Below are positions 4,609-63,671 of a stretch of DNA of 64,000 bases, piece by piece. Position numbers and translations under genes: made by a program. Under the pieces are notes generated by a model. It ran no database searches. It saw only the letters and a program-made list of their open reading frames with translations, and was not told the DNA's origin. The stretch is from Selenomonadaceae bacterium (lineage in GTDB: Bacteria > Bacillota > Negativicutes > Selenomonadales > Selenomonadaceae), in NCBI GenBank assembly GCA_017446845.1, contig JAFSOQ010000055.1, positions 983 through 64,982 on the forward strand, given 5' to 3'. Numbering within the stretch: position 1 is the first letter of the stretch; the number at the start of each line of letters is the position of its first letter.

Positions 4609-5610
4609 ATGATTTATTACCTCGGACTTGGTGCGAACCTCGGCGAGTGCAAGAAAACTTTGCGTCGGGCTATCGAAAGCATAAAAAAAATTCCCGCCGT
4701 TAAACTGTTGCGGGTGTCGTCATTCTACGAAACTGAACCTTGGGGCGTCGAAAATCAACCGGATTACATCAACGCCGCCGTAAAAATTTCCACAACTCTT
4801 GAGCCGCTCACTTTACTCGACGAATTGCAGCGCATTGAATTTGAACTCGGAAGAATTCGCCGCAAACATTGGGAGGCGCGAATCATTGATATTGACATTC
4901 TTTACGGTGAAAAAATTTCTTGCGAGCGTTTGACTGTGCCGCATAAATTTCTTTTTGACCGTGACTTTGCATTGATTCCGCTTAAAGAAATTTTCCCGAC
5001 GTTTGAATTTAAACTTCACGGCGACAAAGTTTTTTTGACTGATGGTTCGCCCGTCGATTTTAAATTTAAACTCGTTGCCTGCGTCAATAAAAATTTCGGG
5101 CTTGGTCGAAACGGAAATCTCCTCTTCCGTATTCCCGAAGACTTGAAAAATTTTCGCCGCCTCACGCTCAATCACACGATTATTTTCGGGCACAATACTT
5201 TAAAAACTTTTCCGAATCAAAAACCGCTTGACGGACGCAGAAACATTATCTTGAGCCGCTCCTTGGAAAAAATTTCGGGCGCGGCAGTCGTCGGCAGTGT
5301 CGAAGAACTTTTTGGCGTGCTCAATTCGGCAGAAAATAATTTCGTCATAGGCGGCGGCAACGTGACGTTGCATCCAATGGACGCGTCCAATCTTTCAACG
5401 GCAATAACAATTCCCCGCGCTCGAACAGATAATTTCGTTATCGGTGGCGAGCAGATTTTTAATGAACTCATTCCATACGCCGAAGAAATATTTTTATCCG
5501 TCGTCGATGAAAATGCTCAAGCCGATAAATTTTTCCCAAGCGTCGACGAATTCACTTTGCGCGACGTGAAAACTTTTGCCGGCTTTGAACTTAGGAGATA
5601 CACTCGATGA
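4609..5610 (+). CDS. folK/folA: Bifunctional HPPK (FolK) / dihydrofolate reductase (FolA) fusion, with a 31-aa repeat-derived insertion in the DHFR domain
   Basis: The N-terminal half has HPPK motifs ([26 protein letters not shown]). The C-terminal half is DHFR ([54 protein letters not shown]). The VIGG motif occurs twice around an insert. Confidence 0.85.
5357..5427 (-). repeat. Copy (a) of a dispersed ~70-95-nt repeat family, inserted in frame in the DHFR-coding region
   Basis: It starts with GCAACGTGACGTTGCATCC. The 18 nt CAACGTGACGTTGCATCC are identical to the reverse complement of 9868-9885, and TCCCCGCGCTCGAAC matches 13 of 15 positions of rc(9815-9829). It is flanked by 22-nt direct repeats (5335-5356 and 5428-5449, 4 mismatches) offset by exactly 93 nt. 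Confidence 0.6.
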
Positions 5611-6305
5611 GAAAAATTTTTAAAAATGATTGGGCGGAACTTTTGAACGACGAATTGAACGAGCCGTATTACCGGGAGCTGCGCAAATTTCTGATTGACG
5701 AATACAGCACGAAAAAAATTTTCCCGAACATGTATGACATCTTCAACGCGCTGCACTTCACGAGCTACGCCGACACAAAAGTTGTAATTCTCGGTCAAGA
5801 CCCGTATCACGAGCCGGGACAAGCGCACGGCTTAAGCTTTTCTGTTTTACCGGACGTTCCGCCGCCGCCGTCGCTGATTAATATTTTTAAAGAATTGCGC
5901 GACGACCTCGGCTGTTTTATTCCAAATAACGGTTGCTTGAAACCTTGGGCGGATCAAGGCGTTTTGCTTTTGAATGCGGTCTTGACTGTCAGAGCGCACG
6001 TGGCGAATTCACATCGCGGACACGGCTGGGAAATTTTTACAGATAAAATTATTCGTCTGCTCAACGACCATGAACGCCCGCTTGCATTTATTCTTTGGGG
6101 ACGACCTGCGCGGAGTAAAAAGAGCATGATAACCAATCCGCGTCATTTTATCGTTGAATCGGCTCACCCCAGTCCGTTATCGGCGAGCGGAGGATTTTTC
6201 GGCAGCAAACCTTTTTCACGCGTCAATAAATTTCTCGAATCAATCGGCGAATCACCAATCGAATGGCAAATACCTGATATTAAGGGACAAGGAACAAGTT
6301 TTTAA
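5607..6305 (+). CDS. ung: Uracil-DNA glycosylase (family 1)
   Basis: [22 protein letters not shown] and HPSPLSA motifs. There is a 4-nt ATGA overlap with the folK/folA stop. Confidence 0.92.
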
Positions 6306-6328
6306 TTCCTCATTCCTCATTCCTCATT
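6305..6328. repeat. Tandem heptad repeat (ATTCCTC)x3.4; GAGGAAT on the minus strand
   Basis: Read directly: attcctc attcctc attcctc att, immediately after the ung stop. Confidence 0.8.
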
Positions 6329-6346
6329 GATAGAAAGGAGCTGCAC

Positions 6347-6712
6347 ATGACGAAGCAAAATATTTCGCGAATTCTTTTGGCAGTCTTGATTATCTCAAAT
6401 GTTTATCTGCTTTGGCGCGTTCATTCCAACACAATGTCGATTGCCTCTTACGACGCCGGAATTAATCAGCGCACGGGCGTCGGTCAGCTTGAAAGTTTTT
6501 GGACAAAATATATCGGCGGCTCCAAAGGTTTTGGAACTTACGAGGACAGGCAGCGAGCCGAATCCGACAGCCAAACTGCCACCACTGTTCTTATAGTTTT
6601 GGATATTGTTCTTATCGGGTCGATTTATTTTCTCAACAGAAAACCTAAGCCGAAGCCCGCGCCCGTTGATGATGATTGGAGAGTTCCGCGCAGAAGTCGC
6701 AGACGCCGTTAA
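6347..6712 (+). CDS. Small membrane protein (2 predicted TM segments, Arg-rich C-terminus), function unknown
   Basis: AAGGAG lies 7 nt upstream. Hydrophobic segments are ILLAVLIISNVYLLW and TTVLIVLDIVLIGSIYFL. It is followed by a terminator. Confidence 0.5.
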   Translation: MTKQNISRILLAVLIISNVYLLWRVHSNTMSIASYDAGINQRTGVGQLESFWTKYIGGSKGFGTYEDRQRAESDSQTATTVLIVLDIVLIGSIYFLNRKPKPKPAPVDDDWRVPRRSRRRR

Positions 6713-6720
6713 AAAATTTT

Positions 6721-6750
6721 CCCCGCCGAAATTTGACGGGGACTTTTTTA
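6721..6750 (+). terminator. Rho-independent terminator
   Basis: CCCCG (6721-6725) pairs with CGGGG (6737-6741), followed by a CTTTTTT run. Confidence 0.6.
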
Positions 6751-6783
6751 TAACTTGATTGGGACAACGTGATGTTGATTTTT

Positions 6784-6847
6784 AGGGATTAGCTTATAGC
6801 TTATAGCTTATAGGCTAATTCCTCCTATCAGATATAAGCTATCAGCT
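6784..6847. repeat. Heptad-repeat hairpin element: (AGCTTAT)x3 enclosed by the inverted repeat AGGGATTAGC / GCTAATTCCT
   Basis: Read directly. agcttat occurs x3 at 6791-6811. The flanking stem has one G:U pair. Partial inverted copies (ataagct, atcagct) lie at 6834-6847. Confidence 0.7.
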
Positions 6848-6893
6848 AAAACGCCGCGCATTGCCAACATAAAAATTTTAAGGAGTTACTTGA

Positions 6894-8483
6894 ATGGAAA
6901 AAGTTTCGCCACTCTTGAAGAATAAAAATTTTCTCTACGCCACGGAATTCTTTTCCGGCATGTCGATAATGGCGGTCGAACTCGGAGCCGCTCGGTTGCT
7001 CGCGCCTTATTTCAGCTCATCGCAAATCGTCTGGACAATTATAATCGGCACGATAATGATTGCGTTGGCTCTCGGAAATGTTTGGGGCGGTCGCCGCGCA
7101 GATTTAGACGCGAATCCCGCGAAACTTTATCGCCGATTGATTTTTGCCGCGCTGTGGATTGGTGCAATTCCCGTGCTCGGAAAATATTTAATCCTTGCGC
7201 TCGCCGGAGTTTTAATCGTCGCAATCGACACCAATCTTTTAATTTGGGCGGCGTTCCTGTCGTGCATGGCGATTTTTGTCTTGCCGCTGTTTTTACTCGG
7301 AACCGTCACGCCGTCGCTTGTAAAATATTCAACCGACAATCTCGAACATAACGGACGAATCGTCGGGAATTTAAACGCGTTCAACACAATCGGCAGCATT
7401 ATCGGAACATTCTTGCCGACTTTCGTGACGATACCCGCCGTCGGCACTGCGATAACTTTTTTGATATTTTCGGGCGTCCTCCTGCTTATCGGAATAATTT
7501 ATTTTGTGAGTATCGGAGCTAAGAAAATTTTCTGCGCGGGAGCCGTCGCGATTTTTATTTTGTGCGGCGTGCTGAGTACTTCGAACAGTTTTGCATTTTG
7601 GGAGAAAAATCTTTTGTACGAGGGCGAATCGATTTACAACTATCTTCAAGTCAAAGATACTCCCGACAAAATTATTTTTTCCACGAATGTTTTATTCGGC
7701 GTGCAGTCGCTCAAAGTCAAAGGCGGCGGCTTAACGGGCATGTATTACGATTATGCGCTGGCGGCTCCGTTGCTTGCCGAAAATAAAAAAATTTTGATTC
7801 TCGGCATGGGCACGGGCACTTTCGCCGAACAATGCAGAAAATATTTTCCGTCCGCAAAAATCACAGGCGTTGAGATTGACGATAAAATTACAATGCTCGC
7901 GAAAAAATATTTTTCCTTGCCCGAAGATGTCGAGGTCGTGACTTATGACGGGCGCGCCTTCCTGCAAGCCGATAAAAATTTTTACGACGTGATTTTGGTC
8001 GACGCCTTCCAAGATATTACAATTCCGTTTCAAATGAGTTCGACGGAATTTTTTACGCTGGTCAAGAATCATTTGACGGCGGACGGAATTTTAGTCGTGA
8101 ATATGAACATGCGGGCGAGCGGCGCAGGCAACATCAACGAATATTTGATTGACACGATTGGGAAAAATTTTTCGGCGGTAAAAATAATCGACGCGCGCGG
8201 CGTGACCAACAGAGTTTTATTCGCGGCGGCTGACGAAAAAATTTTGAATCAACTTAAACCCCGCGCAGAAGTTCTTGACGATGAAAATTTATCGCGGCTG
8301 ATGATTCACATTGCCGACACTTGGACGACGCCCGCGCTCGGAGAAAATATTTTGACTGACGACCGCGCTCCCGTCGAAATGTTGAGCATGAGAGCTTTGG
8401 ATAATCTGATTCAGCAAAATTTGCAACACTACAAAGAAATTTATCGGCGCGAAGGTTTAGACGGAATTTTGAACAGTTTTTGA
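6894..8483 (+). CDS. Fused polytopic membrane domain / spermidine-synthase-like aminopropyltransferase
   Basis: The N-terminal ~230 aa are multi-TM. The C-terminal part has a class I MTase-fold SpeE-like core (ILILGMGTGTFAEQ, VEIDDKI, YDVILVDAFQD). Confidence 0.8.
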   Translation: MEKVSPLLKNKNFLYATEFFSGMSIMAVELGAARLLAPYFSSSQIVWTIIIGTIMIALALGNVWGGRRADLDANPAKLYRRLIFAALWIGAIPVLGKYLILALAGVLIVAIDTNLLIWAAFLSCMAIFVLPLFLLGTVTPSLVKYSTDNLEHNGRIVGNLNAFNTIGSIIGTFLPTFVTIPAVGTAITFLIFSGVLLLIGIIYFVSIGAKKIFCAGAVAIFILCGVLSTSNSFAFWEKNLLYEGESIYNYLQVKDTPDKIIFSTNVLFGVQSLKVKGGGLTGMYYDYALAAPLLAENKKILILGMGTGTFAEQCRKYFPSAKITGVEIDDKITMLAKKYFSLPEDVEVVTYDGRAFLQADKNFYDVILVDAFQDITIPFQMSSTEFFTLVKNHLTADGILVVNMNMRASGAGNINEYLIDTIGKNFSAVKIIDARGVTNRVLFAAADEKILNQLKPRAEVLDDENLSRLMIHIADTWTTPALGENILTDDRAPVEMLSMRALDNLIQQNLQHYKEIYRREGLDGILNSF

Positions 8484-8565
8484 TACAAAACTTGACTAAC
8501 AGGAGTATGATTGATCGCATTGAAGTCACGGAATTTTTCATTGCGATTTGGTTTAGGAGGTTGTC

Positions 8566-9696
8566 GTGGAAAAAATTTTGCAATTCATAGCGAAGGAAAC
8601 GGGCGGCGAAAGTTATCGCACGTCCAGAATGGAACTCGATATTGAAAATTCTTCCGAGCTGATTGAATACGAAGTGCCCGCCGAAATTGTTTCCAAACAC
8701 GCGGGCGAAACTCGTCCGCCGAAAAATTATTTTTCCCTTGAGGAACACGCTAAAAATTTTTCTTCAAGCGGACAGATTTTAAATTACTTTTTGGACGGCT
8801 CGCGGCACGTCTACAAAATTGACGACATTGCTTACAATCACGGTGTGCGCAAAATGATTTATCCGATTGTCGCCGGTCAAGTCGTGGCGGGCTGTTGTCG
8901 ACGCGTCGATAAAAAATTGCACGCGGAAAATTTTTCTGCGGAGATTGTCCTTGCCGTTCCCGACGTGACCAATCCCGACAGCCACAAAGGATTTTTTCCC
9001 GCGCTTGTCAGCAAAATTAATGAGCGTTTCAAAATAAAAATTTCAAAAATTTTGCCATACAAAACGGACAGTAAGCCCGCCGAAAAATTTGAAGACCGCG
9101 CCGTCGCCAAGATTATGGAGCACATGCACAACACCGAAATAAATTTTGTCGCCGAACTCGTCAGGCGCGGCAAGCTCGACCAAAAAAATTATCTCGTCAA
9201 GGACGGTTCGCTTGAGTATAAAGTTTTGACCGAGAGAAAATTTAACCCCAAGAATTACAGCTTTGTTATCGGCGTCTCGAAAAAATTTAATCCGCTGCTC
9301 GTGAAAAATTCCAAAGACAAAAACGATCCCGGACTTGTCGCCGACCTGCCGCTTTTTTATCGCACGCCCGTCACGATTTTTGAACGCGGCAATTTCCACG
9401 AAGGAAATAAATTTGCGGTGTGGTATGTTCGTCTGCGCGATAAAAAATATTCCGATTCGCCCTTTGACGGCGTTGTTAAGGTTGAAAAAATTTTGGTCAC
9501 GGATGCCGAGCGGGATAACGACAAAATCGACAGCGACGATGTAGATCTTTTGAGCGCGTATCTTATCAACGAGCGCAATCCTGTTTGCTACGGCGCGGAC
9601 GGTCGTTGGGCGAATCACATTTATCCGATTTTTCTTACCGAAAGTTTTATCAAGTCGAGATTTATTTCCGCAGAAACATTTTTGAACTTATTTTAA
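8566..9696 (+). CDS. NurA-like (RNase H-fold) nuclease, 376 aa
   Basis: GTG start with AGGAGG 5 nt upstream. NurA-type motif order: FLDGS (D77), MEH (E185), VKDGSL (D213), VIGVSKKF, IYPIFLTE near the C-terminus. It is immediately upstream of a HerA-like ATPase, as in HerA-NurA operons. Confidence 0.6.
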   Translation: MEKILQFIAKETGGESYRTSRMELDIENSSELIEYEVPAEIVSKHAGETRPPKNYFSLEEHAKNFSSSGQILNYFLDGSRHVYKIDDIAYNHGVRKMIYPIVAGQVVAGCCRRVDKKLHAENFSAEIVLAVPDVTNPDSHKGFFPALVSKINERFKIKISKILPYKTDSKPAEKFEDRAVAKIMEHMHNTEINFVAELVRRGKLDQKNYLVKDGSLEYKVLTERKFNPKNYSFVIGVSKKFNPLLVKNSKDKNDPGLVADLPLFYRTPVTIFERGNFHEGNKFAVWYVRLRDKKYSDSPFDGVVKVEKILVTDAERDNDKIDSDDVDLLSAYLINERNPVCYGADGRWANHIYPIFLTESFIKSRFISAETFLNLF

Positions 9697-9885
9697 ATTG
9701 GGCTAGAAATGCGCATGCATTTCGTACGGACGCGGCTACTCGGATAAAAATTTTTAAGCGGTGCGGCGCGTCAGCTGTTTGTCAACTTTTTAAAAGTTGT
9801 GCGCATGCATTTTCGTACGAACGCGGGGACAACGTTAAAAATTTTTAAGCGGTGCGGCGCGTCAGCCGGATGCAACGTCACGTTG
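9697..9885 (+). repeat. Copies (b1, b2) of the dispersed repeat family: two tandem ~90-nt units inserted between the NurA-like and HerA-like genes
   Basis: GCGCATGCATTT(T)CGTACG(G/A)ACGCGG...AAAAATTTTTAAGCGGTGCGGCGCGTCAGC occurs at 9711-9776 and again at 9801-9867 (period 90). The near-palindrome CAACTTTTTAAAAGTTG lies between the units. The element ends in GCAACGTCACGTTGC and is bounded by a duplicated 29-mer (9668-9696 and 9886-9914). Confidence 0.8.
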
Positions 9886-9923
9886 CCGCAGAAACATTTT
9901 TGAATTTATTTTGAGGTGAACAC

Positions 9924-11537
9924 ATGAGCGAGATTATCGGACGCGTCGCGGCTACTGAAAAATTCCCGTCGACCATGGACAAATTTTATTTTTGGACGAA
10001 CGCCGAATTCAGATTGAATGCCTTCGACGTGGTTAAAGTAAAACATTTGGACGAATCATTTTCTTTCGGCACGGTGGAAAATATTTTTCACATAACCGAC
10101 GCGAAAAGTTTTTTGACGAATTACATTTCCTGCGATTTTGGCGACACGAACATAAGCGCGCCGACTTTGCGAATCGGCATGAATTATGTTGAGGTCGCCG
10201 TTTCTTTTAACACAAAAAATATTTATACGCCCGTCAAAAATGATTCGGCGGTTTACCTGGCAAGCGCGGAAGAAATCGAAATGGCGTTGGGGCTCGACAA
10301 GATAAAAAATAAATTGCCCTGCGGCTATCTGAAAATGTACGAAGGTCACGCCGACAAAGAAATTATTTTGCCCGTGAATCTCGACGCACAATTTATTTTA
10401 GGTCCGGAAGGTGCTCACTTAAATATTTCGGGCATATCGGGCTTGGCGGCGAAAACCAGTTACGCGATGTTCCTTATGAAGTCCGTGCAAGAAAATTTTT
10501 CCGATTGCGCGTTCATAATTTTTAACGTTAAGGGCAAAGACTTAATGGCGATTCATCAACCGAACGACGAAGACTCCGCGCCGATTTATAAAAATTTGAA
10601 TTTGAGCGGCGAGCCTTTTGAAAATGTTCATTACTACGCGCCGCGAGACAATAAAAGCGTCACGAGCTACTTGCCGCCCGAAGACGCCGAAAATTATCTT
10701 GCCGAAGGTCTGATGAAAAAATTCGCTTACATTTACGAGGACGACCGCGAGTCTTTGGAAATGCTCTTCGCCGACATTGACGACACGACGCAGACGATGG
10801 ACTCGATTATCAGCAAAATTATCGACCCGAACGATTACGACTTCGGCGGGATTTCTAATTGGGACAGTTTTTTAAATAAGGTCAACGAATTGTCGCAGAA
10901 AGGTAATGCCAAAGAAATTTCCGTTTTGAGTTGGCGCAAGTTCAAACGCATAATCAACAAGGCGATAAAAAATGATGCGATGTTCGTAAATCACACGGCT
11001 CCGAATTTTGAATGCCGCCTCGAAGACGAATTGAAAAATATTTCGGCGGGTTCGGTCAGCGTGATTGACATTGCAAAGCTCGGCAGCGATAAGCAGGCGT
11101 TTGCTTTCGGCGACGTACTCAAGACGATTTACAAACTCAAGCTCGGCGATTACGATATAACTCCGCCGTCGAAGATAATTATCTTCATGGACGAGTTAAA
11201 TAAATTTGCCGGAAAGGATACGACGAAAAATTCTCCGATATTGCGCCAGATTTTGGACGTGGCAGAGCGCGGACGGTCATTGGGAATAATTTTATTCGGC
11301 GCGGAACAATTTCGCTCGAACATTCACCCGCGAGTTACGGGGAATTGTTCAACGCTTGCTTTCGGTCGCACGAACGTTTTAGAGACGACGACCAAAGATT
11401 ATTCTGCATTGCCCTCGACATATAAAAATATTTTGACGCGACTGGAGCAGGGCGAATACGTCATACAAAATCCGATTTTCCGTTCGCTGCTCAAAGTCAA
11501 ATTCCCGAAGCCCGCTTACAAACAGTTCAAAGATTAG
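9924..11537 (+). CDS. HerA-like (FtsK-HerA superfamily, DUF87-type) ATPase with N-terminal HAS-barrel, 537 aa
   Basis: N-terminal GRVAATEKFPSTMDKFYFWTN...FDVVKV looks like a HAS barrel. The P-loop GISGLAAKTS (res 170-179) has Ala in place of the usual Gly before Lys. Walker B is IIIFMDELNKF (D423-E424). The arginine-finger region AERGRSLGIILFGAEQFRS is like HerA EGRK.G..l...SQRPS. Confidence 0.7.
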   Translation: MSEIIGRVAATEKFPSTMDKFYFWTNAEFRLNAFDVVKVKHLDESFSFGTVENIFHITDAKSFLTNYISCDFGDTNISAPTLRIGMNYVEVAVSFNTKNIYTPVKNDSAVYLASAEEIEMALGLDKIKNKLPCGYLKMYEGHADKEIILPVNLDAQFILGPEGAHLNISGISGLAAKTSYAMFLMKSVQENFSDCAFIIFNVKGKDLMAIHQPNDEDSAPIYKNLNLSGEPFENVHYYAPRDNKSVTSYLPPEDAENYLAEGLMKKFAYIYEDDRESLEMLFADIDDTTQTMDSIISKIIDPNDYDFGGISNWDSFLNKVNELSQKGNAKEISVLSWRKFKRIINKAIKNDAMFVNHTAPNFECRLEDELKNISAGSVSVIDIAKLGSDKQAFAFGDVLKTIYKLKLGDYDITPPSKIIIFMDELNKFAGKDTTKNSPILRQILDVAERGRSLGIILFGAEQFRSNIHPRVTGNCSTLAFGRTNVLETTTKDYSALPSTYKNILTRLEQGEYVIQNPIFRSLLKVKFPKPAYKQFKD

Positions 11538-24277: not shown

Positions 24278-24346
24278 TAAGGAGTTAGGAGTTAGGAGTT
24301 AGAGAAAAAAACCTAAATCCTAAATCCTAAATCCTAAAACCTCTAA
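24278..24346 (+). repeat. Heptad-repeat hairpin in the lepA leader: (TTAGGAG)x3.5 facing (CCTAAAT)x4-5
   Basis: Read directly. UUAGGA hexamers (24285-90, 24292-97) are complementary to UCCUAA hexamers (24325-30, 24318-23), in register with one G-A mismatch per heptad. Confidence 0.8.
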
Positions 24347-42623: not shown

Positions 42624-42696
42624 GTGGTTAGTGATTAGTGGTTAGTGATTAGGGATTTTTCCCTAACTCCCAAATCCTAACTCCTAAATCCTAAAA
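42624..42696 (+). repeat. Heptad-repeat hairpin in the rnj leader: (TGRTTAG)x4 facing (CTCCYAA/ATCCTAA)x5 around the TTAGGGA-ttttt-CCCTAA tip
   Basis: Read directly. The arms are roughly complementary, with about one mismatch per heptad. The SD GGGAGGAG follows at ~42699-42706. Confidence 0.75.
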
Positions 42697-47214: not shown

Positions 47215-47305
47215 CAACTTTTAAAAAGTTGCCAAATAGTTGACGCGCCGAAACGTTTCGATAATTTTAACGTAGACGCCGCGCCGGAACGCAACCATTG
47301 CTAGC
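47215..47305 (-). repeat. Copy (c) of the dispersed repeat family, intergenic (trxB / yjiH-like)
   Basis: CAACTTTTAAAAAGTTGCCAAATAGTTGACGCGCCG...GCTAGC aligns end to end with the reverse complement of unit b1 (9701-9799: GGCTAG...GGCGCGTCAGCTGTTTGTCAACTTTTTAAAAGTTG). Confidence 0.65.
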
Positions 47306-62527: not shown

Positions 62528-62606
62528 TAGGAACTAGTAAATAGGAACCGGGAACCGGTAGTGATTAGTGATTAGAAACCAGTTCCCGGTTCCCAATTCC
62601 CAGTTC
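62528..62606 (-). repeat. Heptad-repeat hairpin between pepP and efp
   Basis: GGAACCGGGAACCGG (62544-62558) pairs with CCAGTTCCCGGTTCC (62579-62593). The loop carries TAGTGAT x2. More GGAAC/GTTCC-type units flank it. Confidence 0.75.
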
Positions 62607-63671
62607 CTATAATTCTATCAAATTTTTTGGCGAGCGCGTCAAAGGTTGAGCCTTGCCGCTCGTGACCAAAACGGTATCTTCAATCCTCACGCCGCCGAAA
62701 TTTTCGATGTAAAGCCCCGGCTCGTCGGTAACAATCATATTCGGCAAAAGTTTTTCGCATTTGCTGAGTTTGCTTAAGCGCGGCTCTTCATGAATTTCCA
62801 AGCCGACACCGTGTCCCAAACCGTGGACGAAAAATTTTTCGTAGCCCGCCGCCGTAAATCTGTCGCGAACAGCCGAATCAATTTCCTTGCCGCCTTTGCC
62901 CGCCGTAATTATTTCCAAGCCGTAAAGTTGCGCGTCGAGGACAAGATTATAAATTTTCTTCTGCTCGTCCGAAATTTTTCCTACACAAATCGTCCGCGTG
63001 ATGTCAGAGCAATAACCTTTATAAATCGCGCCGAAATCCATTGTGACGAGTTCGCCCGCGCAGATTTTTTTTTCGGTAGCGGTGCCGTGCGGGAGACTGC
63101 CTCTCCAGCCCGAAGCGACAATCGTCGTGAACGCCGCCGCCTCCGAGCCGAATCGCCGCATAAAATATTCCAACTCCGCCGCAACTTCAATCTCACGAAT
63201 TCCGGGCTTTATAACTCCCAAAATTTTTTTAAAGGCATCGTCGGCAATTTCACACGCCACGCGAATTTTATCAATCTCCGCCGCGTCTTTGACCTGTCGC
63301 AACGTATCCAACTCGACCGATTTAAATTCGACGCCTTCAAGTTCTTTTTTCAAGTAGCTGTGTTCGGCGACCGTCATAACGAGTCCTTCAAAGCCGATTT
63401 TTTTACAGCCCGAAAGTTTTATCTCGTCGACGATTTTTTTATAAAGCCCTTCGGTCTGTTCGACGAGCGTAAAATTTTTTGCTTGCCGAATCGCTTGTTC
63501 GGTGTATCGCCCGTCGGTTATCAGCTTGCGAAAATTTTTCCCGACAAACAATGCCGAACTGTCTCCGCGAAATCCGCTTAAGTAAGTGACGTTCGGAATC
63601 TTCGTGATTAAAATTGAGTCGACCTCTTCGGCAGAAATTTTCTCGTAAAGATTAATCAATCGCTCGTTCAT
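62607..63671 (-). CDS. pepP: Xaa-Pro aminopeptidase / M24B peptidase
   Basis: Creatinase-like N-domain plus the M24 core (DFGAIYKGYCSDITRT, HGLGHGVGLEIHE, TDEPG, VRIEDTV). Confidence 0.9.
   Translation of the reverse strand: MNERLINLYEKISAEEVDSILITKIPNVTYLSGFRGDSSALFVGKNFRKLITDGRYTEQAIRQAKNFTLVEQTEGLYKKIVDEIKLSGCKKIGFEGLVMTVAEHSYLKKELEGVEFKSVELDTLRQVKDAAEIDKIRVACEIADDAFKKILGVIKPGIREIEVAAELEYFMRRFGSEAAAFTTIVASGWRGSLPHGTATEKKICAGELVTMDFGAIYKGYCSDITRTICVGKISDEQKKIYNLVLDAQLYGLEIITAGKGGKEIDSAVRDRFTAAGYEKFFVHGLGHGVGLEIHEEPRLSKLSKCEKLLPNMIVTDEPGLYIENFGGVRIEDTVLVTSGKAQPLTRSPKNLIEL

Follow-up and report, generated by a model that had tools for sequence, protein, structure and literature searches.

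A stretch of 64,000 nucleotides from a Selenomonadaceae bacterium (GenBank assembly GCA_017446845.1, contig JAFSOQ010000055.1), referred to here as the window, carries on its forward strand (4609–5610) an open reading frame (ORF) in which folK and folA are fused, and the DHFR half of this gene contains, in frame, one unit of a small dispersed repeat. The product, 333 amino acids long with the insert included, comprises an HPPK Pfam domain at residues 4–130 (E 5e-36) and a dihydrofolate reductase (DHFR) domain that matches the DHFR_1 profile (PF00186) with 118.6 bits against a cut-off of 25 (E 3e-34), the latter match being divided into two stretches by the insert.

The insert is enclosed by two copies of a 22-nt target. 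The upstream copy, c1 (AATAATTTCGTCATAGGCGGCG, 5335–5356, forward strand), encodes N243-N-F-V-I-G-G and the first base of G250, and the downstream copy, c2 (GATAATTTCGTTATCGGTGGCG, 5428–5449, same strand), encodes D274-N-F-V-I-G-G and is contiguous with helix αF (EQIFNEL). The two agree at 18 of 22 positions and their starts are spaced by 93 nt (31 codons). Between them lies a 71-nt repeat unit (5357–5427, forward strand) that begins with a perfect 15-nt palindrome, GCAACGTGACGTTGC, here called P1 (5357–5371, forward strand), which is the exact and invariant end of the family and is translated at this place as (G)NVTL; the remainder consists of ATCC, 4 nt, GACGCG, about 30 nt, CCCCGCG and CTCGAACA. 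The unit is read in frame, coding for the 24 residues 250/251–273, and neither stop codons nor frameshifts occur in the ORF across the insert. An earlier inspection of the letters and predicted ORFs alone (the sequence-only reading) had described the recurrence of the 22-mer 93 nt downstream, the doubling of NFVIGG by a long flanking duplication and the in-frame position within the DHFR domain, and direct reading of the sequence bears out all three.

A second copy of the family, made of two units with P1 at 9872–9886, occupies 9668–9914 on the reverse strand between NurA-like and HerA-like genes and is bordered by a 26-nt duplication (9671–9696 and 9887–9912, 25 of 26 nt identical). The start of the DHFR insert, GCAACGTGACGTTGCATCC, equals the reverse complement of 9868–9886 at 19 of 19 nt, and with the preceding GCG the exact match extends to 22 nt (E 1e-5); the match reported by the sequence-only reading was thus real and its length of 18 nt too short. 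A longer alignment between insert and element covers 32 nt at 88%, and the resemblance claimed for the end of the insert was also found, TCCCCGCGCTCGAAC agreeing with the reverse complement of 9815–9829 at 13 of 15 positions. When scored for significance, the similarity to 9815–9885 lies far above chance, and the exact match together with the collinearity of the insert with the family unit places the two elements in the same family, as had been proposed. Five other loci match the insert over 29–31 nt at 97–100%.

Exact copies of P1 number 36 in the 2.19-Mb, 142-contig assembly, against none for the reversed control and a chance expectation that we estimate at about 0.004, and 43 sites in this source genome (G000) carry P1 with at most one mismatch. 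The family unit is collinear after P1 (ATCC, 4 nt, G(A/T)CGCGCCG, about 30 A/T-rich nt and GCCGCG, in all 64–68 nt), and 5357–5427 follows 32 other units over its whole length with the same anchors. P1-core units of this kind are found alone, joined with other hairpin modules, or in tandem arrays with periods of 64 and 82 nt in which each unit begins at P1. Only one of the 43 sites of G000 is internal to a gene, namely the DHFR copy; five others overlap the 3′ ends of ORFs, to which they give the last residues and the stop codon (C22:2027, C72:15418, C97:3024, C101:1272 and C138:6151, with tails of the types (K/R)QRDVAS... or SNVTLHP...). Within the genus, 6 of 11 genomes contain exact P1 (17–43 copies in five of them, 2 in the sixth); carriers include G075, G093, G127 and G141, and G014, G108, G119, G134 and G147 lack it. 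No exact copy occurs in the 140 genomes that represent 39 other genera of the bacterial family, so that the P1-core family is confined to a subclade of a Quinella-like rumen genus, the named relatives being rumen metagenome-assembled genomes (MAGs) labelled Quinella or Selenomonadaceae.

The possibility that the repeat encodes a structured RNA was considered and rejected, as positions 5200–10000 gave no Rfam match at E <= 1, no compensatory base pairs occur among 32 units, covariation does not go beyond the invariant P1 and CGCG stems, and the insert folds no better than shuffled sequences.

Comparison with orthologues uncovers the empty site for which the sequence-only reading had recommended a search. 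Among the 120 best database homologues the orthologues are mostly 302 amino acids long, and most of them, the closest included, lack the 31 residues. The closest two, P0003 and P0002, which share about 90% identity with the window protein once the insert is set aside, have the sequence ...SAEENFV(V/I)GGEQIFNEL... and a single 22-mer at the DNA level (GAAAATTTCGTTGTCGGCGGCG in the closest relative), which argues that the duplication is real and not a coincidence of coding sequence. The window allele corresponds to the empty allele plus 93 nt, that is, an extra 22-mer and the 71-nt unit, and has gained 31 residues.

Family inserts stand at the same codon boundary in 9 of 162 aligned orthologues. 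The 22-nt duplication is found in the window allele, P0001, P0010, P0018 and L049; the L047 allele has a duplication of 55 nt (53 of 55 identical) that doubles NFVIGGGQIFNELIAYAA; P0085 and P0020 hold an insert with no duplication, and P0115 has a different left module at this site. In all filled alleles the palindrome is joined by its first base, with the first two bases missing or changed in P0020. The boundary has most likely been filled in at least eight lineages by recurrent insertion at a preferred or permissive spot, accompanied by some losses. Filled alleles are scattered in the gene tree and eight state changes are needed to explain them; monophyly of the nine insert-bearing alleles is rejected at a cost of 460 log-likelihood units (p-AU 2e-61), the constrained group having been chosen after a first tree had been viewed. 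By its proportion of synonymous differences (pS 0.08), the L047 duplication does not predate the divergence of this allele from its nearest empty relative (pS 0.14), and lineage-specific states are seen in both 55-nt copies. A filled allele is unlikely to have been acquired from another species through homologous recombination, since in the window the sequence on either side, as far as the duplicated 22-mers, belongs to its own clade and both 55-nt copies of L047 are native to its lineage.

The most serious competitor of recurrent insertion, itself unlikely, is a history in which the common ancestor of the P1-bearing subclade acquired the insert once, long ago, and many precise losses followed through flank-repeat recombination or single-strand annealing, with the palindrome-side flank remodelled by break repair into duplications of 0, 22 and 55 nt. 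Such a history would fit the non-palindrome junction, which all filled alleles share to the nucleotide while the palindrome side varies, and also the resemblance of the DHFR inserts to each other (62–81%), which slightly exceeds the similarity, outside P1, between the window insert and the remaining copies of its genome (no more than 70%, with a median of 57%). Flank repeats would make scar-free loss easy, the arrays L142 and L119 and the truncated P1 of L119 (see below) show that such loci rearrange, and c1 and c2 of the window allele are well diverged, differing at 3 of about 5 synonymous sites, which indicates that this copy is not recent. It would nevertheless demand 32 independent precise losses in place of eight gains, and the forms with no duplication (P0085 and P0020) cannot be precisely lost; the different left module of P0115 also speaks against it, as does the L047 insert, which is as close to copies of its own genome (79% and 73%) as to the DHFR insert of another species (76%). 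The NurA/HerA junction, where a TGA overlaps the ribosome-binding site, argues in the same direction: it is empty in 12 of 14 genomes of the genus and filled in G000 and G165 (L147, G165:C69) by clearly different units located at most 4 nt apart, with duplications of 26 nt and about 4 nt, respectively.

Other insertions have been found in the same gene. In L013 (G134:C46) an unrelated element sits in frame at the same DHFR boundary (equivalent to window position 5335), just before AATTTTGTC; it is a hairpin in which four GGGAAGA heptads face four TCCCTAA heptads and it adds GRGKKNSSPSNLSLIPNPYSL. A second DHFR site, in the C-terminal β-hairpin (around window positions 5580–5595), has in-frame inserts in P0073, L009/L078, L071 and L016 that come from other repeat modules, for example GTGDWGLGTRKKFLIPNSSFL and LRIAHCALRIA. 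In the HPPK domain of L045 (P0095), around window position 4690, a truncated unit of 30 nt (P1, ATCC and 11 nt) follows IKK in frame, shows no flank duplication and encodes SNVTLHPMRQ.

The family has an exact P1 end, a variable opposite end and long flank duplications of variable length (9–190 nt). Direct repeats abutting P1 measure 9, 9, 17, 19, 22 and 26 nt in G000, about 51 nt at one locus of G152, and 17, 18, 18, 22, 30, 38, 43, 55, 78, 113, at least 127 and 190 nt among 40 loci of two other species; among 80 P1 sites, 30 have an abutting repeat that reaches or exceeds the 99th percentile obtained from 3000 random sites. The copied length at the non-palindrome end varies from 15 nt (P1 alone, in an array) through 30 nt (the HPPK copy of P0095) to more than 100 nt. 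In some copies, stretches shared with the target occur at this variable junction (CGCG in L142, C129 and L128; 11 nt in L119), and a consensus built on where 17 duplications begin and end shows no more than a weak A-tract tendency there. At the vsr–dcm junction of L142 (G093:C148:2563-3723) the ribosome-binding site, the ATG and the first 19 codons of the cytosine methyltransferase (DLFAGIGG) are present three times with a period of 146 nt and two P1 units between the copies. L119 (G075:C23:33546-34560) has the 190-nt duplication (179 of 190 nt identical) and an upstream unit with only the right half of P1 (GTTGCCTCC), which gives the impression of a palindrome that was broken and then resected.

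Staggered cleavage of the target classically shows in duplications that abut the element, and the P1-core unit could be conceived as an ordinary non-autonomous transposon, a miniature inverted-repeat transposable element (MITE), mobilised by a transposase encoded elsewhere in the genome with a very long and variable stagger, as reported for IS1549/IS1634, whose direct repeats span 8–514 bp by a mechanism that is not known (PMC2266710). Insertion sequence (IS) copies are, moreover, often absent from MAGs. This account is judged improbable, somewhat more so than a single ancient insertion: terminal inverted repeats are lacking, one end is defined while the other varies as described, and a full-length P1-bounded element was not seen. 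No IS1634-family transposase (NF033559) scored over the cut-off in 41 genus genomes, with the caveat of MAG incompleteness, and the DDE_Tnp_1 matches of G000 are fragments only. Y1 transposases (PF01797) were likewise not found in G000, G093 and G141, and the genus genomes searched have at most Y1 fragments. Spread as a retroposon by target-primed reverse transcription was rejected, as searches of G000 and of the 100%-complete G093, a genome with 32 copies of the repeat, gave no reverse transcriptase (PF00078, RVT_1).

As an alternative to a classical transposase, insertion might come about when breaks with a wide stagger are filled in, or when a polymerase switches template to a donor strand whose end is P1. 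Such an enzyme-free route is put forward tentatively, at somewhat less than even odds. Loss of the unit by recombination between the flank repeats would be precise. A broader proposal, more doubtful than the route itself, is that P1-core represents a new kind of bacterial repeat whose spread does not depend on its own transposase, in which the palindrome would mark a site-specific break or strand end, insertions would be 'self-healing' and excision would leave no scar. The long duplications would then rebuild the interrupted part of the target, that is, strand βE and the cofactor motif in DHFR, the stop codon and ribosome-binding site in NurA/HerA, and the start codon and N-terminus in vsr/dcm, and self-healing insertions could persist inside essential genes.

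On solved DHFR structures the two NFVIGG copies fall on identical positions, namely strand βE and the conserved diglycine that contacts NADPH (e.g., 1df7 90–100). The c2 copy is canonical and contiguous with helix αF in all insert-bearing alleles except P0001 (NLVIGG), and its residues N275, F276, V277, G279 and G280 are invariant or nearly so in the orthologue alignment. The c1 copy is altered at positions otherwise invariant (NFIIDGG in P0010 and NFVLGG in L049, i.e., G to D and I to L) and reads as a spare βE strand and GG motif in decay. A full-length AlphaFold model was unusable, with a predicted local distance difference test (pLDDT) score of 54, and a domain-only model was used (mean pLDDT 75, predicted TM-score 0.72). 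It places a strand at 275–278 followed by a helix at 281–290 (pLDDT 87–91), while only residues 243–271 fall below pLDDT 50 and are unstructured; compared by Foldseek with solved DHFRs it reaches target-normalised TM-scores of 0.80–0.85. According to the model, c2 is the copy predicted to serve as βE and diglycine motif.

The course of events may be pictured as follows. A 71-nt unit would have landed in the DHFR half of folK-folA, bringing a direct target duplication of 22 nt. Because unit and duplication add up to 93 nt with no stop in the frame used, the gene stays open, and because NFVIGG is re-created directly before αF, the native βE–diglycine–αF junction would be rebuilt downstream. Although the physical insertion point lies after the diglycine, the rebuilt strand would shift the effective insertion to the surface loop between αE and βE, where c1 and the 24 element-coded residues would make a 31-residue, probably disordered excursion; modelling had been advised by the sequence-only reading with just such a surface loop in mind, and the predicted structure keeps the DHFR fold around it. 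The long duplication may thus be what makes the insertion harmless.

The sequence-only reading had left two outcomes side by side, a tolerated loop or an inactive DHFR replaced elsewhere, and the evidence favours the former. An inactivated enzyme, with the organism relying on ThyX and another reductase or on folate salvage, is improbable, more so than the two alternatives considered so far. What could be said for it is that the duplication sits at the NADPH-binding diglycine, that the position of E. coli T113 is occupied by serine (S304 in IFLSVVD, window 5518–5520, the same in P0001, where nearly all relatives have threonine), and that the search for a thyX bypass did find a ThyX gene (G000:C14:25978-26514, reverse strand, outside the window), whereas ThyA was not detected in G000, a genome 73.6% complete. 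With ThyX present and no ThyA detected, the demand on DHFR would be limited to de novo folate synthesis. ThyX does not oxidise folate to dihydrofolate. The gene belongs to a folP-folB-folK/folA operon, a context of de novo synthesis that requires the last reduction step, and it yields the only DHFR match in this incomplete genome, the search for a second folA having returned no other. Its frame is intact, and comparison with the nearest empty allele (P0003, dS 0.49) gives dN/dS values of 0.125 over the entire gene and 0.168 over its DHFR portion. The counterparts of E. coli D27, F31 and R57 are conserved and the c2 diglycine is present, as read by eye from the sequence, the predicted model retains the fold, and similar open-frame inserts persist in at least eight lineages. 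The filled DHFR is most likely active, as judged from these sequence features and the model.

That the 31 residues are merely an old lineage-specific loop of a DHFR clade or an assembly chimera, with no mobile element involved, is very improbable: extra residues do occur at this position in several species, but the closest orthologues lack them, the DNA is collinear with a family dispersed in 36 copies, and a 99%-identical 333-residue protein with the insert (P0001) comes from an independent assembly, which makes an artefact unlikely.

Taken together, the locus is best read as an in-frame P1-core unit in a DHFR that most likely tolerates it, to which a probability of roughly 0.8 may be assigned; within this reading, recurrent insertion at the site is the favoured history and a non-classical route the more tentative part. 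Several points weigh against this reading: the resemblance of the DHFR inserts among themselves and their common junction to the nucleotide, which would suit one old insertion; the age of the window copy; the serine at the T113 position; the absence of shared stretches from many copies, so that pure microhomology joining at the variable end is not the rule; the predicted activity, which relies on selection and on a model of moderate confidence; and the incompleteness of the source genome, whose missing part could encode another reductase or a mobilising enzyme.

Further repeats are found elsewhere in the window. A third family copy, a core unit without exact P1, lies at 47215–47305 (forward strand); 80 nt of it are 76% complementary to 9720–9799, to which it is oriented oppositely. 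Hairpins of opposed heptads (TTAGGAG and CCTAAAT types) are frequent throughout, for instance at 24280–24337, 42628–42685 and 62528–62609, and in the genome they often adjoin P1-core units (...cctaatcattcctaactcc).

By their defining features the P1-core units belong neither to the Rickettsia palindromic elements (RPEs) nor to MITEs, REPINs or IS1634 derivatives. RPEs are small, palindrome-bearing dispersed repeats that occur in frame in unrelated housekeeping genes, where they contribute a peptide compatible with the fold (PMC10969869). The DHFR copy resembles them in being in frame and tolerated in a housekeeping enzyme, and by analogy it behaves like an RPE at the functional level, as selfish DNA. 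RPEs measure about 100–150 bp and nearly half of them are intragenic, whereas P1-core units span about 65–70 nt and are gene-internal at one site only; the hosts also belong to different phyla, and the two are set apart here by host, size and location. To our knowledge RPEs have not been described with long target duplications. MITEs share with P1-core units their short, non-coding and multi-copy nature, direct repeats of the target at the flanks and, at times, in-frame gene fusions; they differ in their terminal inverted repeats, where P1-core has a palindrome at one end only and a variable other end, and in their fixed short target repeats, compared with 9–190 nt, and no parent IS was found. 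IS1549/IS1634 are the only bacterial elements that we found reported with long direct repeats of variable length, but these are autonomous DDE elements of 1.5–2 kb with two defined ends.

Repetitive extragenic palindromic (REP) sequences, together with the bacterial interspersed mosaic elements (BIMEs) and REPINs, are comparable as short palindromic units that form mosaics and tandem clusters and are mostly intergenic. P1 is however a perfect 15-nt palindrome and not the REP stem-loop with its GTAG head, and no RAYT or IS200-like Y1 enzyme was found; as far as we know, REPINs do not duplicate their target. Mycobacterial interspersed repetitive units (MIRUs) and the BOX elements of pneumococci are modular units in variable tandem number, and MIRUs are placed at tight gene junctions of operons where they overlap stop and start signals. 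The P1-core copies at NurA/HerA and vsr/dcm likewise overlap the signals of tight junctions, but neither MIRUs nor BOX elements are defined by a terminal palindrome with long flank duplications, and we know of no sequence relation between them and P1-core. The insertion mode of the family may be new.

Rickettsia offers the best-known examples of selfish DNA lying in frame within housekeeping enzymes, and the present locus provides a clear case in an unrelated and uncultured rumen lineage, with the insertion at the cofactor-binding strand of DHFR, one of the best-studied enzymes. The orthologues constitute a natural series of DHFRs that are empty or have about 23–25, 31–32 or 42 extra residues, with or without a duplicated βE and part of αF. 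The combination of an exact palindromic end, a variable end and duplications of up to 190 nt, with no transposase or reverse transcriptase detected, points to an undescribed insertion route for small bacterial repeats, and the long duplications suggest how insertions into genes can become harmless and reversible.

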